Assembly: GCA_963716395.1 (NCBI GenBank)
Contig: OY970309.1
Location: 2,656,001-2,720,000 of the forward strand
Direction of reading: 5' to 3'
DNA: 64,000 nucleotides
Source of the DNA: an uncultured Fibrobacteria bacterium
Lineage (GTDB): Bacteria; Fibrobacterota; Fibrobacteria; UBA11236
How positions within the stretch are numbered: position 1 is the stretch's first letter; each line of letters opens with the position of its first letter. The notes under the pieces were generated by a model, which searched no databases, was not told where the DNA came from, and was given only the letters and a program-made list of their open reading frames with translations. The translations under genes were made by a program, and so were the position numbers. Positions 20,661-28,566 of this stretch are shown here, in pieces.

Positions 20661-22817
20661 ATGGCGACCCTTAAGTTCGAACTGGAAGTGCAGGGCCAGC
20701 CGGCCGATCTCTTTACCGTGCTGGACTTCAACCTGGAGGAGGAATTGAGCCATTGTTTTCGCGCCACCGTGAATGCCACCAGCGAAAACGGCGACCTGGC
20801 CTACGACGATTTGGTGGGCAAGCCGGTCACGCTTACGGTGCAGGGCGAGGATTTTTCCGTGGAGCATTACGGCATGGTGAGCGGTTTCGTATTGCACCCC
20901 GATCACAGCCGGGAATTCGGCCGCGAGAGTTACCTCTACGTCCTCGAATTCGCCCCCCGCTTCAAACTGTTGGAATTCGCCGGGCAAAACCGCATTTTCC
21001 AGAAGCAGAAGGTCGAAGACATCGTGCAGGCCGTGCTTAAGGATCACGGTTTGCAGGGCGACGATTTTCGCTTCGACCTGCGCCAGCCCACGCGCGAACG
21101 CGAGTATACGGTGCAATACAACGAAACCGATCTGAATTTCGTATCGCGGCTTTTGGAATGCGAAGGCATCTACTATTTCTTCGACCACGAGAACAAAAAA
21201 GACACGGTGGTATTCGCCGACCATACCGACGCCGTGCGCCCCATTCCGCATACGCCCACCTTGGGGTACGAACCCGAAGTCGGCCTCAACCATCTGGCCA
21301 AGGACCATATCACCAGCATGCGCCGCGAACAGCAACTGGTGACCCAAAACGCGCGGGTGAAGGATTACAACGACCGCACGCCGGGCACTTCGATTATGGG
21401 GGTGTCGCAAGGCGCGCAAGGCCGCGGCGAACGCTACGACTTCGCCCCGGGCGTTCCCGACGCCGGCGCCGCCCATCGTTGGGCCGGCGTCGCCGCCGAC
21501 ACCTACCAGGCGCTCAAAATCACGCTCAAAGGCCACGGCGTGGCGCGGGCGTTACGGCCGGGTTACCGCTTTGAACTGGAAGACGGCGAGCATACCTCCT
21601 TTGCGGGCAAATACACGGTGGTACAGGTGACGCATCACGGCGATCAAAGCGAGGGCTTTCAGCGCGATCAGAGCCGGCTCAACTACTTGTGCGAATTCAT
21701 CTGCATTCCGGCGGCCACGGTCTTCCGGCCTTTGCGCGTGACCCACGCTCCCAAAATTTCCGGCATTCTCCTGGCCCGGGTCGACGGGCAAGACGGCGAT
21801 TACGCGTCGCTCGACGAAGAAGGGCGCTACCATGCCAAGCTGCCTTTCGATCTCACCGATGCCACCAACGGGCAGGCCACTTTGCCCATTCGCCTCAGCC
21901 AGCCCTATGCCGGGCCGGGCTACGGCACGCATTTTCCTCTGCATAACGGCAACGATTTGGTGCTGGCTTTTCTCAACGGCGACGCCGACCGGCCCATCGC
22001 CTTGGGCGCCATTCCCAATCCCTCCAACGCGTCGCCCGTCACCAGCCGCAACAAATCCGAAAGCGTGATTAAAACCGCTGCGGGCCACGAATTGCGCTTC
22101 GACGATCTCAAGGATAAAACCGCGGTGGATCTCACCACCGCGGGCAAACACGTTTTGTCATTCAAGGATGACAAGGATCATCAGGAGATCCGGGTCACTA
22201 CCACGGGCAAGCATGAGATGGTGTTCGACGACAAAAACAAAAACGTCCGCATCCTCACCGCCGATGGCGGCCACCAGGTGCTGCTCGACAACGACAAGCA
22301 GGCGCTGACGCTGCAAACCAAATACGGCCACCTGATCACGCTCGACGACGAGAAAAAAGCCCTGTCGATCCAAACCCATGAAGGGCACATCTTCAAGATC
22401 AGCGACGACGACAAGATGATTTCCCTGCAAGACAAAGACGGCAAGCACGTGCTGCAATTCGATCTCGGCGGCAGCAAGGTGTCGCTGACCACCGAAGGCG
22501 ATTTGTCCTTGACGGCCAAGGGCTCGCTTAACATCGAGGCCAAGGAGATCACCCTGGAAGCCAAACAGGGCGCGTTCAGCGCCAAAGCCATGAAAGATTT
22601 GACCTTGCAGGGCATGAACGTCAGCGCCAAGGCGCAGCAAAACCTCACGCTCGAAGGTACGGTGGCCGCGAACCTGAAGGGGCTCAACACCAAGGTTGAG
22701 GCCCAGGTCAATCTCGACCTCAAGGGCGGCGTGCAGACCAAGGTCAGCGGCACCATGGCCAATCTCGAAGGCAGCGCCATGGCCCAGGTCAAGGGCGCCG
22801 TGGTCATGATCAACTGA
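20661..22817 (+). CDS. vgrG: Type VI secretion tip protein VgrG
   Basis: REYTVQYNETDLNFVSRLLECEGIYYFF, GTHFPL..G..LVLAFLNGDADRP; beta-helix C-terminus ending KGAVVMIN. Confidence 0.95.
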   Translation: MATLKFELEVQGQPADLFTVLDFNLEEELSHCFRATVNATSENGDLAYDDLVGKPVTLTVQGEDFSVEHYGMVSGFVLHPDHSREFGRESYLYVLEFAPRFKLLEFAGQNRIFQKQKVEDIVQAVLKDHGLQGDDFRFDLRQPTREREYTVQYNETDLNFVSRLLECEGIYYFFDHENKKDTVVFADHTDAVRPIPHTPTLGYEPEVGLNHLAKDHITSMRREQQLVTQNARVKDYNDRTPGTSIMGVSQGAQGRGERYDFAPGVPDAGAAHRWAGVAADTYQALKITLKGHGVARALRPGYRFELEDGEHTSFAGKYTVVQVTHHGDQSEGFQRDQSRLNYLCEFICIPAATVFRPLRVTHAPKISGILLARVDGQDGDYASLDEEGRYHAKLPFDLTDATNGQATLPIRLSQPYAGPGYGTHFPLHNGNDLVLAFLNGDADRPIALGAIPNPSNASPVTSRNKSESVIKTAAGHELRFDDLKDKTAVDLTTAGKHVLSFKDDKDHQEIRVTTTGKHEMVFDDKNKNVRILTADGGHQVLLDNDKQALTLQTKYGHLITLDDEKKALSIQTHEGHIFKISDDDKMISLQDKDGKHVLQFDLGGSKVSLTTEGDLSLTAKGSLNIEAKEITLEAKQGAFSAKAMKDLTLQGMNVSAKAQQNLTLEGTVAANLKGLNTKVEAQVNLDLKGGVQTKVSGTMANLEGSAMAQVKGAVVMIN

Positions 22818-22833
22818 GAACCGGAAGCGCGCG

Positions 22834-23931
22834 ATGGAATGGTTGAGCCGCGTGGTTCCCGGTTATGGTCCGGACGGCAGCCCGATTTTGTCGGTGCTGG
22901 CCAAACGCACCTATCGCTTTGCCAACGGCAAGCCCGCGGCCATCGACGCCGAGGAGCAGATCCCCTTTCTCGAAGCCGACGAATACTGGGGCCAGGGCCA
23001 GCCCGAACACGATCCCGTACGGCTGGAATCGGATGTGGTGGCCTACAAACCCATGACCGACGTGATTTTCATCGGCAAGGCGCATGCACCCAAGGGCAAG
23101 CAGGCCTATTACCTCGACGTCGGCATCCAGGTCGGAACGGCGCGCCAACTGGTGCGCGTAATTGGCGACCGCAAAGCCTACGTGACGGGTTCGGGGCTGG
23201 CCTTCACCGAACCCGAACCCTTTGCCGAAATGCCGCTGGATGCCGGGCGCGCCTATGGCGGCAAAGACGAAAAATCCGACGAGGGCATCGTGTACGTTTA
23301 CCCCAAAAATCCGGTGGGCAAAGGGTTCACGGTCAAGAACCACCCCAAAGCCGTGCAGGATTTGGCGCTGCCCAATCTCGAAGATCCGCGCAAGTTGCTG
23401 ACGCCGCAGAACCTGGCCCTGGGCCGTTTCGACCGCTGGAAGGAATGGCCCGATCCCGTGGGGCTCGGCTGCCGCGGCAAACAAAGCTATCCGCGCTATA
23501 CTTTGTCGGGACTGCCGCCGGAGCAATGGCCCGAAGCCGATACTGCCGCGCGCCGCGCCGTGAAACAAGCTCCCGAAATGGGAACCAGGCCGTCGGCGCA
23601 AAGCGCCGGGCCGCCGCGGCTCAATCCCGCGTTTTACAACGCCGCCGTTCCGGGCTTGTGTTTTCCACCGCTGCGCGGCGACGAAGCGGTGAAACTGGCC
23701 TACCTCGATCCCGAGGCTCCGCAATTTTCTTTCGCGCTTCCCGGCGAGCGGCCGCGCGCCTGGCTCGACGTGGGCGAAGGCCCCGAAGATATGCACATGG
23801 CCTTGCACACCGCCGTGATTTACAAAGAGACCAACCAGCTCACGATGGTGTGGCGCGGGTTCACGCGGTATCAGGGTCTCGAAGCCATGAAGGATTTCAC
23901 CCTGTTCGAGTTCGGGATCCACGAGGCTTGA
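22834..23931 (+). CDS. DUF2169-family T6SS adaptor
   Basis: ESD...YKP.TDV...G.AHAP, RAYGG, YP.NPVGKG, LPNLED, FYNAA, MVWRG; directly after vgrG. Confidence 0.9.
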   Translation: MEWLSRVVPGYGPDGSPILSVLAKRTYRFANGKPAAIDAEEQIPFLEADEYWGQGQPEHDPVRLESDVVAYKPMTDVIFIGKAHAPKGKQAYYLDVGIQVGTARQLVRVIGDRKAYVTGSGLAFTEPEPFAEMPLDAGRAYGGKDEKSDEGIVYVYPKNPVGKGFTVKNHPKAVQDLALPNLEDPRKLLTPQNLALGRFDRWKEWPDPVGLGCRGKQSYPRYTLSGLPPEQWPEADTAARRAVKQAPEMGTRPSAQSAGPPRLNPAFYNAAVPGLCFPPLRGDEAVKLAYLDPEAPQFSFALPGERPRAWLDVGEGPEDMHMALHTAVIYKETNQLTMVWRGFTRYQGLEAMKDFTLFEFGIHEA

Positions 23932-27630: not shown

Positions 27631-27639
27631 CGGAACCGG

Positions 27640-28566
27640 ATGCGGCACGTTATTACCGATACGGCTTCGCGGGCCGTTTTATTCATGGTTATGGCGATAA
27701 TGGTTGTGGTTGATCCGGTGCGCTCCGAAGCAGCTTTGGCGGTCCCAAAGGGAAAATTTATGACATCGGAAGAACTGAAGCAGGCTATCGAAGATCCCCA
27801 CAGCCCGGTTTTCAGCAATGAGGGTATGGCCGTCATCGAGAAAAAGGAATACCCGTTTCTCAAAGACTATGTGAATCCGAAAACCACGACGGAGGATGTG
27901 CGCGAGAATTTGCTTACGGTTTTGCAGTACATCAACCAACCCTGGTGCTACCAATATTATTTGGAACTGCTGAAAGATCCGCTGTATCAAATCCGTATTC
28001 CGGCGTCGGAAGGCATGGCGGATTTGAAATTCGGAGTCAATGCTGCGGAGTTGACGGCGGAAATTTCCCGCCAGAACTCAGTAGGCCAAGAAGATCGCAA
28101 AGAGGTGGTTTCGAACCTGGTGCTGGCCGTCGGAAATACACGCGATCCCAAAGCCTTGGAACCGCTGCTCGTGCTATACAAATCCGAGAAGGATTCCGAG
28201 GTCCGCGCCGCCTACCAGGAGGCCAGCGCGAAGCTTGGTTATAAGAAAACCATTCGGGAAATAGAATTGGAATTAATCGGATCTGACGGGTTCGGGAAAG
28301 TCCGTGCCCTGGTAAAGGTGAATTATATCGACACACAGGATTGGATCGAGAAGGTGAAGCCTTTGCTTCTCGATGCCCAAACAGGTTGGACCGCTCCCAT
28401 GGGTCCGGCTACGCTCACTCTACGCGTCTGTGACCTCGCGGTAAATACACTACGCAAAATCGATCCGGAGAAGAAAATCACCTTTCCCGAAAAGTCACGC
28501 GGCGTGCATTACTCCGAAGCGGAAATGCAGGAAGCGCGTAAGGCCTACGCGGTCGCTAACAAATAA
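27640..28566 (+). CDS. HEAT-repeat protein, putative immunity paralogue 3 (chimeric)
   Basis: Same family motifs; N-half resembles paralogue 2, C-half resembles paralogue 1. Confidence 0.78.
   Translation: MRHVITDTASRAVLFMVMAIMVVVDPVRSEAALAVPKGKFMTSEELKQAIEDPHSPVFSNEGMAVIEKKEYPFLKDYVNPKTTTEDVRENLLTVLQYINQPWCYQYYLELLKDPLYQIRIPASEGMADLKFGVNAAELTAEISRQNSVGQEDRKEVVSNLVLAVGNTRDPKALEPLLVLYKSEKDSEVRAAYQEASAKLGYKKTIREIELELIGSDGFGKVRALVKVNYIDTQDWIEKVKPLLLDAQTGWTAPMGPATLTLRVCDLAVNTLRKIDPEKKITFPEKSRGVHYSEAEMQEARKAYAVANK

Follow-up and report, generated by a model that had tools for sequence, protein, structure and literature searches.

A putative type VI secretion island of a Fibrobacteria bacterium, with a frame-broken metzincin-like effector gene and HEAT-repeat candidate immunity genes

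The window analyzed here, a stretch of 64,000 nucleotides from an uncultured Fibrobacteria bacterium (GenBank assembly GCA_963716395.1, contig OY970309.1, positions 2,656,001 to 2,720,000 of the forward strand), contains at 20661-28566 an island of six genes, all in one direction. They are vgrG, a DUF2169 gene, the gene of a putative metallopeptidase effector and three paralogous genes of HEAT-repeat proteins. The features of the island are the following, with positions counted from the first letter of the window.

20661-22817, plus strand: vgrG, 718 amino acids (aa); Phage_GPD, E 1.4e-72; TIGR03361, E 1.5e-100
22834-23931, plus strand: DUF2169 accessory/chaperone gene, 365 aa, single-domain; PF09937, E 4.9e-63, 213.7 bits versus a cut-off of 25
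23932-24150, plus strand: N-terminal piece of the effector, about 73 aa in frame 1, a small beta-sandwich domain; the frame continues out of register to 24363
24143-24152, plus strand: frame break, a +1 shift that separates the N-domain from the remainder of the effector, located by homologue alignment in two frames
24170-25645, plus strand: main frame of the effector, 491 aa from GTG 24170 or 489 aa from ATG 24176
24263-24415, plus strand: PG_binding_1, aa 32-82 counted from GTG 24170, E 5.8e-12
From about 24890, plus strand: predicted metzincin catalytic domain, with HExxH at 25340-25354, the invariant His406 at 25385-25387 and Met427 at 25448-25450
25587-26552, plus strand: HEAT paralogue 1 (HEAT1), longest frame 321 aa; HEAT_2, E 7.5e-8; likely cognate immunity gene
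26555-26683, plus strand: relic of the 3′ end of a second effector gene, 43 codons between HEAT1 and HEAT2, right after the HEAT1 stop
26725-27630, plus strand: HEAT paralogue 2 (HEAT2), 301 aa; HEAT_2, E 4.7e-7; likely orphan immunity gene behind the relic
27640-28566, plus strand: HEAT paralogue 3 (HEAT3), 308 aa; HEAT_2, E 1.9e-6; likely additional immunity gene

The scores obtained with the first two genes bear out the identities given to them in a first-pass annotation, which had been made from the letters of the window alone. According to a search of the whole source genome, both are single there, vgrG being the only match to Phage_GPD and the DUF2169 gene the only match to PF09937. The usual partners of DUF2169 genes had been described as missing, and this was also found: the DUF4150 model (PF13665) gave no match anywhere in the source genome, and domain-model scans assigned a thiolase-like identity to none of the six island genes. 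The island is also devoid of a PAAR or PIPY gene. The search for tssBC and hcp that had been proposed showed that a contractile system is present elsewhere in the genome, the core genes of a type VI secretion system (T6SS), for TssK, M, A, B, C, Hcp, F and G, lying at about 3.31-3.32 Mb, some 640 kb from the island. The label of orphan locus is right as to position and wrong otherwise, as these are the sole vgrG and the sole DUF2169 gene of the genome. The G+C content is 0.59-0.63 in vgrG and the DUF2169 gene, 0.54 in the effector gene and 0.46-0.51 in the HEAT genes, a fall that is typical of exchangeable cargo.

Concerning the effector, which had been taken for one multidomain protein, all the domains named were present (the N-domain, PG_binding_1, the zinc motif HELGHVLNLTCHKDAH and the Met-turn candidate WSRTRLM), but they do not form a single open reading frame (ORF): the N-domain is in frame 1, the part with PG_binding_1 and the peptidase is in frame 2, and the change occurs within approximately 24143-24152. 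The N-terminal piece starts at ATG 23932, which abuts the DUF2169 stop codon, and matches its homologues only to about 24148, up to the residues ...GYL. Past that point, frame 1 has no protein-like character up to its end at 24363. Frame 2, with a stop at 24143-24145, is open from 24146, and the homologues match it from IFGIDYF... onward. The first starts available in frame 2 are GTG 24170 and ATG 24176, neither of them with an evident ribosome-binding site. In the 13 full-length relatives (550-583 aa) the N-domain is contiguous with the rest of the effector, and the N-piece of the window shares 52–56% identity with the N-terminal part of the full-length effectors in two related genomes, G017 and G024; against Pfam it gave no match at E ≤ 1. 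The closest database homologue, P0002 (494 aa, 61% identical, from a Fibrobacteria metagenome-assembled genome, MAG), has its annotated start within a few codons of the window's break, and the family members P0045 and P0046 likewise go without the N-domain. Programmed frameshifting was set aside, as the site of the break is neither a homopolymer nor an obvious slippery run; the coincident start of P0002 stays unexplained by that. The alignments thus suggest that the effector copy of the window is broken by a frameshift in the assembly, with which a real mutation and an assembly error would both be compatible.

The family of the effector is rare and occurs across several phyla. A search of 5.8 billion proteins returned 25 matches, namely the 13 full-length proteins, the 489-aa product of the window, P0002 and 10 proteins sharing just PG_binding_1. 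In a profile search of 1.84 billion cluster representatives, 44 of the best 150 matches reached the peptidase domain and 4 were N-terminal fragments, the others being unrelated PG_binding_1 repeat proteins; the size of the family is at least 44 clusters at 50% identity, found in MAGs labelled Ignavibacteriaceae, Fibrobacteria and Zixiibacteriota. Among relatives of the source genome the occurrence is patchy: 2 of 40 relatives gave a full-length match, and a search of 11 further genomes of the same genus did not find the effector. Of the 40 relatives, 24 have TssC, as against just one of those 11.

Conservation was counted in an alignment of 50 sequences (A3). The H, E, G and H of an HExGH motif and a further His (His406 in the window) are present in 50/50 sequences, the Met of W-S-x-x-R-L-M, a candidate Met-turn downstream of the zinc motif, in 49/50, and a D.TD.E motif near the C-terminus is nearly invariant. 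Between PG_binding_1 and the catalytic domain there are a linker with a conserved RFxRA...PxPDxRG motif and, behind it, a beta-rich middle domain. P-x-P-D-x-R-G lies outside the catalytic domain, and its conservation approaches that of the zinc motif (Arg 48/48; Asp 47/48, Asp123 in the window).

The fold was examined on an AlphaFold2 model of the homologue P0003, 57% identical to the window protein, built on the family alignment (predicted local distance difference test, pLDDT, 90; predicted template-modelling score, pTM, 0.90). For residues ~322-570 of this model, the best Foldseek match was the adamalysin-type venom proteinase 4j4m (E 6.4e-7); 2cki was matched at E 2.5e-6, and ulilysin is among the matches. 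VIA-align gave, over model residues 325-570, Z 14.9 for ulilysin 3lun, with a root-mean-square deviation of 3.1 Å over 182 residues, and Z values near 12 for ADAM, adamalysin and snake-venom enzymes. At the level of sequence, the family profile compared to PDB sequences matched trimerelysin II (E 3.2e-8), with the HELGH of the family placed on the zinc helix of that enzyme, ADAMTS-5 (3.4e-5) and ulilysin (2.3e-4). No Pfam peptidase model reached its cut-off on the family: Reprolysin_3 scored 13.7–14 bits versus a cut-off of 22.4 in two homologues and did not match the window protein, while Peptidase_M43 scored 12.8 bits versus 23 in one of the five homologues scanned. The C-terminal domain is thus predicted, from model and profile together, to be a metzincin-fold zinc peptidase outside any Pfam peptidase family, in agreement with the metzincin assignment of the first-pass annotation and with the Foldseek comparison it had recommended.

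The N-domain was less informative. Modelled alone, it gave a generic small beta-sandwich of moderate quality (pLDDT 66.6). Foldseek found nothing at E ≤ 0.001 and an ESM Atlas search with residues 1-110 of P0003 gave no usable match, while a wide VIA search reached at best Z 6.8 (Ig-like, filamin, CnaB and pilin-type sandwiches), under the level deemed informative. By inspection, the N-termini of 25 full-length members of the effector family have no signal-type segment.

The gene downstream of the effector is constant. Alignment-based scans located the effector in metagenome or MAG loci (L003 and L009-L018, of which L014 and L015 are near-duplicates), and a HEAT homologue was directly downstream of it at each of the 13 loci open to assessment at the DNA level: 10/10 metagenome or MAG loci (L003 and L009-L017), the two related genomes G017 and G024, and the window; the contig of L018 ends at the effector. 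A further pair is formed by P0002 and the HEAT protein P0175, whose accession numbers follow each other on a single contig of a Fibrobacteria MAG. Of 41 related genomes, just the three with the effector gave strong matches to the HEAT family. A linkage of HEAT homologues to such effectors in other genomes, the lack of which would have told against the first-pass reading, is thereby supported. A strong homologue of the HEAT family, P0176 (E 2.9e-66), carries the label of a Methanosarcinaceae archaeon MAG and lies on a contig of 8.7 kb; either an error of binning or the transfer of an immunity gene may explain it.

The three HEAT-like paralogues of about 300 aa seen in the first reading are indeed such, with HEAT_2 scores of 28.5–33 bits versus a cut-off of 27.7 and mutual identities of 48–55%. 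The signal-peptide-like N-termini ascribed to them were found in the long forms of all three, and depend on the start that is chosen. HEAT1 has a hydrophobic segment ACGLLLFIGVGL upstream of the invariant Met55, HEAT2 a signal-like N-terminus MGRRAAGVFCCAVLYVFQIHAAA and HEAT3 another with VLFMVMAIMVVV. HEAT1 has alternative starts at GTG 25626 and ATG 25749, the latter with GAGGAG 6 nucleotides upstream, and it is from ATG 25749 that it has been annotated. Export was judged with a simple hydrophobicity measure, as a 12-residue segment of mean Kyte-Doolittle value ≥ 2.0 within the first 60 aa. Such a segment was present in 13 of 16 HEAT copies (3/3 in the window, 7/10 in the other loci and 3/3 in G017 and G024), and the mature part of the window paralogues reached maximum segment means of 1.4–1.7. 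The HEAT homologue of L003 has a clear lipobox, LFVSGC. All of the 12 aligned homologues have a Met where the mature HEAT domain begins (window positions 25749, 26824 and 27760), with Shine-Dalgarno-like runs before it in the three window paralogues; translation may start at two sites, or the N-terminal tail may have a function. The constant downstream position and the mostly export-type N-termini fit the proposal that these proteins provide periplasmic immunity.

The interaction of both partners was explored by complex prediction with effector residues 96-491 and HEAT1 residues 55-321, following the multimer check proposed in the first-pass annotation. The score was 0.55 (runs of 0.43, 0.55 and 0.60) versus 0.01 for the best control; the runs agreed in at least 66% of contacts and the pLDDT of the partner was at least 84. 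In the calibration, 58 of 80 solved complexes and 2 of 110 mismatched pairs attained the mark; passing scores of 0.60 or less came from just 7 of those 80 and from both of the mismatches that passed. The check thus lends the pair weak support, in a range shared with passing mismatches. That the HEAT proteins bind and neutralize the toxin may be proposed from this model and from the conserved linkage.

Absent from the earlier reading of the window is the relic effector 3′ end at 26555-26683. Its translation is RPPFRSDIRSRSRLTAK/RLKNDGTDDEMDISRDAVDGKPNPLY, ending in ...RLKNDGTDDEMDISRDAVDGKPNPLY, and it is 62% identical to effector aa 457-491, the last 35 residues. It has suffered an internal deletion, and the Trp and the Met of the Met-turn motif are replaced. 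A direct repeat of 57 nucleotides (25550-25606 and 26594-26650) is 86% identical between its two copies. Given this relic, HEAT2 and HEAT3 look like immunity genes left by lost effector copies. The relic tail and the lower G+C of the cargo are signs of a polymorphic locus. The window locus is probably now mainly a spike/chaperone locus plus an immunity array; its effector copy illustrates locus decay, in which the toxin is broken or a relic and the immunity genes are kept.

Concerning the loading of the effector, the N-domain had been proposed as a new DUF2169-dependent loading domain, and this proposal was not supported. In G024 (same family as the source genome, other genus), the order is VgrG, DUF2169, a 365-aa PAAR-motif protein (PF05488, E 5.6e-19), an effector of 554 aa and HEAT; the order in G017 is identical except for two small ORFs placed between the PAAR-motif gene and the effector. 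Both genomes thus have a PAAR gene after DUF2169 and before the effector. A homologous PAAR-motif gene is also found directly before the effector of L003 and L011, and the contig of L009 begins inside an ORF of the same PAAR-type family, while none of the 11 metagenome or MAG stretches gave a DUF2169 match; L003 adjoins a TssC gene matching PF17541. Because a PAAR gene precedes the effector in L003, L011, G017 and G024, and the 11 stretches gave no DUF2169 match, the N-domain seems to travel with PAAR proteins rather than with DUF2169.

Compared with G024, the window shows identities of 52% in VgrG, 63% in DUF2169, 56% in the N-piece, 39% in the remaining effector and 33–34% in HEAT, and with both G017 and G024 considered they are 51–52% for VgrG and 61–63% for DUF2169; such values suggest a conserved carrier with variable cargo. 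DUF2169 is better explained as a spike-tip chaperone, the role given to it in the passages of PMC11883445 that deal with it, and the window would have lost, or never had, a PAAR gene. As the same passages report DUF2169 to be rarely next to PAAR genes, loci of the G017/G024 type seem to belong to a rare class. In the subfamily L014-L018, the N-domain and PG_binding_1 module form a separate small ORF ahead of the peptidase ORF.

Several observations concern related genes at other places. In the vgrG island at L014:1700-8530, on a metagenome contig, the split effector/HEAT pair is preceded by three small genes that combine LysM and PG_binding_1, by a PAAR gene of 118 aa and by large unassigned ORFs. 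The source genome itself has two PAAR genes elsewhere (G000:C1:54755-56488 and 1180966-1182810, corresponding to L033:1274-2992 and L034:1485-3314), with a C-terminal Peptidase_M23 domain. Both products are close homologues (E 1e-90) of the in-locus PAAR proteins of G017 and G024 and are probably specialized wall-degrading T6SS effectors; an NlpC/P60 gene is downstream of the first. The gene of about 312 aa found 3′ of the HEAT gene in G024, L009, L003 and L011 has three homologues at G000:C1:1668646-1678381, and one region is common to its family and to the extension at the C-terminus of the PAAR proteins.

It seems reasonable to interpret the island as a T6SS spike-and-cargo module formed by VgrG, a DUF2169 chaperone, a cargo toxin and immunity genes, a reading to which we give a probability of roughly 70%. 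The effector lies beside vgrG, PAAR or adaptor genes, the genome has a T6SS and the protein has no Sec signal, as corresponds to T6SS cargo. Within that reading, the pairing of effector and immunity is, as far as sequences tell, well supported because of the conserved HEAT linkage, the export-type N-termini, the relic effector end and the metzincin fold. The intact toxin would consist of the beta-sandwich N-domain, the three-helix PG_binding_1 domain, the linker and beta-rich middle domain with PxPDxRG, and a C-terminal metzincin endopeptidase. Its N-terminal module would attach it to the spike tip, probably via a PAAR protein, and it would be fired into the periplasm of a neighbour, where the protease would cut an envelope target, more likely protein than peptidoglycan. 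Exported HEAT-repeat proteins would block it by direct binding. In all these steps, activity, secretion and binding, as well as the substrate, are predicted from gene content and models.

Several points weigh against this reading. As to the peptidase, the canonical HExxHxxGxxH spacing is not kept, with Leu for Gly in 47/50 sequences and the invariant His at least 11 residues past the second His; His406 of the window is a candidate for the third zinc ligand and the Met of RLM a candidate for the Met-turn. As to PG_binding_1, the passages of PMC10673891 on such modules, and on LysM, in vgrG loci propose a role in effector selection and not in wall binding. As to export, the HEAT homologue of L017 has no signal segment and those of L009 and L016 are under the hydrophobicity threshold; all three window HEAT genes have better Shine-Dalgarno-like runs before the internal Met than before the long-form starts, and HEAT1 is represented in the protein collection (P0173) by a 267-aa product from ATG 25749 without signal peptide. 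Cytoplasmic HEAT forms may therefore arise from internal starts. The complex prediction gives weak support, and passes as low as this one are more often wrong than right unless the pairing is likely beforehand. Adjacent genes share their history, so the observations of conserved linkage are not independent of each other. Finally, the frame break was read from the assembly, where it may be a real mutation or an error.

The meaning of the frame break gives rise to the most serious alternative, namely that the effector is functional here, either because the break is an assembly error or because the toxin acts in the form of two chains, one with the N-domain and one with PG_binding_1 and the peptidase, by analogy with the natural split forms of the family. 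The intact state of VgrG, DUF2169 and all three HEAT genes agrees with this, as do the start annotated for P0002 near the same place, the lack of the N-domain in P0045 and P0046, and the two adjacent ORFs of L014-L018. However, the natural split falls after PG_binding_1, not before it, and the frame-1 ORF of the window continues without a stop for ~70 codons out of register over the next domain. The lack of an evident ribosome-binding site at GTG 24170 and ATG 24176, the absence of a homopolymer or obvious slippery run at the break, and the absence from the window locus of the PAAR gene that its relatives carry also speak against a working toxin. A functional effector in this genome is therefore doubtful, though it has to be reckoned with. 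Taking the evidence on the break by itself, the toxin of the window may, by a slight preference, be considered non-functional or not loadable, an assembly error or a tolerated split having a probability not far below even.

Other alternatives accept the gene assignments and question the roles. The HEAT proteins could be accessory or loading factors and not immunity proteins, resembling the armadillo-like repeat proteins of DUF2169 'synteny type A' clusters, as alpha-solenoid accessory proteins are described for DUF2169 clusters in passages of PMC11883445. HEAT3 has a faint TIGR02270 match (E 0.049), and the Shine-Dalgarno-like sequences ahead of the internal Met would yield cytoplasmic forms. 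Yet that match amounts to 12.6 bits versus a cut-off of 206.8, and HEAT1 and HEAT2 have none; the HEAT gene is always downstream of the toxin, also in loci without DUF2169 on the sequenced stretch, and most copies have signal- or lipoprotein-type N-termini. Moreover, immunity arrays typically have paralogues in tandem after the relic of a toxin tail, and HEAT identity declines with toxin identity (33–37% versus 38–39% between the window and G017/G024). An accessory role is thus improbable.

A different proposal would deny that the peptidase is an injected toxin. Cell-wall remodelling that helps the T6SS through the sacculus is carried out by TagX-like enzymes, and the peptidase could be a self-acting enzyme of that sort, or a housekeeping periplasmic protease with its inhibitor, as its PG_binding_1 domain and its location beside T6SS genes might suggest. 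Against it, the full-length proteins lack a signal peptide or membrane anchor, and in T6SS loci of the Proteobacteria type as well as of the PF17541 type their gene takes the place of cargo, after VgrG, PAAR or adaptor genes. The effector is also much patchier than the secretion system itself among the relatives, a dedicated exported partner is always present, and decayed copies exist. This proposal has very little probability. An anti-eukaryotic protease, suggested by the likeness to ADAM and venom enzymes, was judged unlikely, as every copy has a dedicated exported partner.

Starting from the spike-and-cargo module, a more ambitious reading can be put forward, in which a T6SS toxin system shared across phyla would combine a portable delivery module, a latency switch of the metzincin and inhibition by the N-terminal tail of the HEAT proteins. 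The beta-sandwich and PG_binding_1 module, fused or separate, would dock cargo on PAAR-tipped spikes in two kinds of T6SS, and in the lineage of the window the DUF2169 chaperone would work with canonical PAAR, not with a PIPY domain. PG_binding_1 and the invariant PxPDxRG may keep the metzincin latent until delivery; matrix metalloproteinases use a prodomain with a switch peptide. The HEAT proteins may inhibit through a conserved N-terminal tail around the invariant Met, and known metzincin inhibitors act through N-terminal trunks; exported and cytoplasmic HEAT forms may be produced from two start codons. Taken jointly, these three parts are speculative and unlikely to hold all at once.

The effector appears, from its sequence relationships, to be a metallopeptidase with immunity, of a kind already known for the T6SS, in an undescribed rare family. 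In the literature searched on T6SS effectors, metallopeptidases, PG_binding_1 and HEAT repeats, no description of the family was found, supplementary tables, which may list members, being outside the scope. The closest precedent in function is described in passages of PMC6899460, according to which the T6SS metallopeptidases VgrG2b C-ter and Tpe1 act in the periplasm and are paired with the exported immunity proteins PA0261 and Tpi1; the resemblance extends to the HExxH zinc peptidase, the periplasm of the target and the immunity gene directly downstream. Unlike them, the toxin of the window is a separate cargo with its own N-terminal module, is adamalysin/ulilysin-like and would be paired with a HEAT solenoid. 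The distinction is drawn from descriptions, and neither VgrG2b nor Tpe1 is among the listed fold matches of the P0003 model; a relationship to them may nonetheless exist. With ulilysin (a pappalysin) and the adamalysin/reprolysin metzincins, the family shares the predicted fold, HExxH on the active-site helix, a conserved Met downstream and remote sequence similarity, and it differs from known metzincins in the Leu in place of Gly, the distant His, the extra invariant motifs DxWS..RLM and D.TD.E, and the bacterial T6SS context.

The gene order vgrG, single-domain DUF2169 gene, effector recalls the DUF2169/PIPY (DUF4150) systems of Tse7, VP1415 and Tde2, in the account of them in PMC11883445; unlike those systems, the source genome has no DUF4150 and the relatives have a canonical PAAR-motif gene after DUF2169. 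Imm-HEAT proteins of polymorphic toxin systems, paired with Ntox34 and Tox-REase-7 in the relevant passages of PMC3482391, are a precedent for HEAT-repeat proteins as toxin immunity; unlike here, where the partner is a peptidase, those passages pair them with other toxins and describe no export signals on them. As in the vgrG loci treated in PMC10673891, PG_binding_1 is either fused to the N-terminus of the toxin or, in L014-L018, part of a small separate gene upstream. In the part of that source concerned, the modules are reported as limited to gamma-proteobacterial families, unlike the present family with its MAGs of other labels.

With respect to the surroundings, the island is flanked by radC (19769-20476, minus strand) and, at the other end, by the gene of an alpha/beta-hydrolase (28582-29385, minus strand). 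Conservation of this hydrolase was not seen when the insertion site was compared with the 11 genomes of the same genus, which yielded a single fragment. A tblastn search against plasmids gave no match, and a scan of the island for promoters and terminators gave counts under the shuffled expectation. Upstream, at 17839-19751, the window has genes for an OmpA-domain protein and for a PDZ and AhpC/TSA thioredoxin-like protein. Near the T6SS core, at G000:C1:3303060-3305731, there are genes for a sigma-54 activator/response regulator and for a histidine kinase, with an SMC gene between them and the core.

The related loci, which put DUF2169 beside canonical PAAR genes, bear on the recent claim that DUF2169 serves PIPY domains. 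If the reading of the island as a spike-and-cargo module is true, a metzincin-type protease would join the short list of T6SS peptidase toxins. Its HEAT-repeat partner would likewise be the first inhibitor of this sort known to us for a metzincin. The pairing of both proteins across distant phyla would then be a natural protease/inhibitor set for studying specificity.

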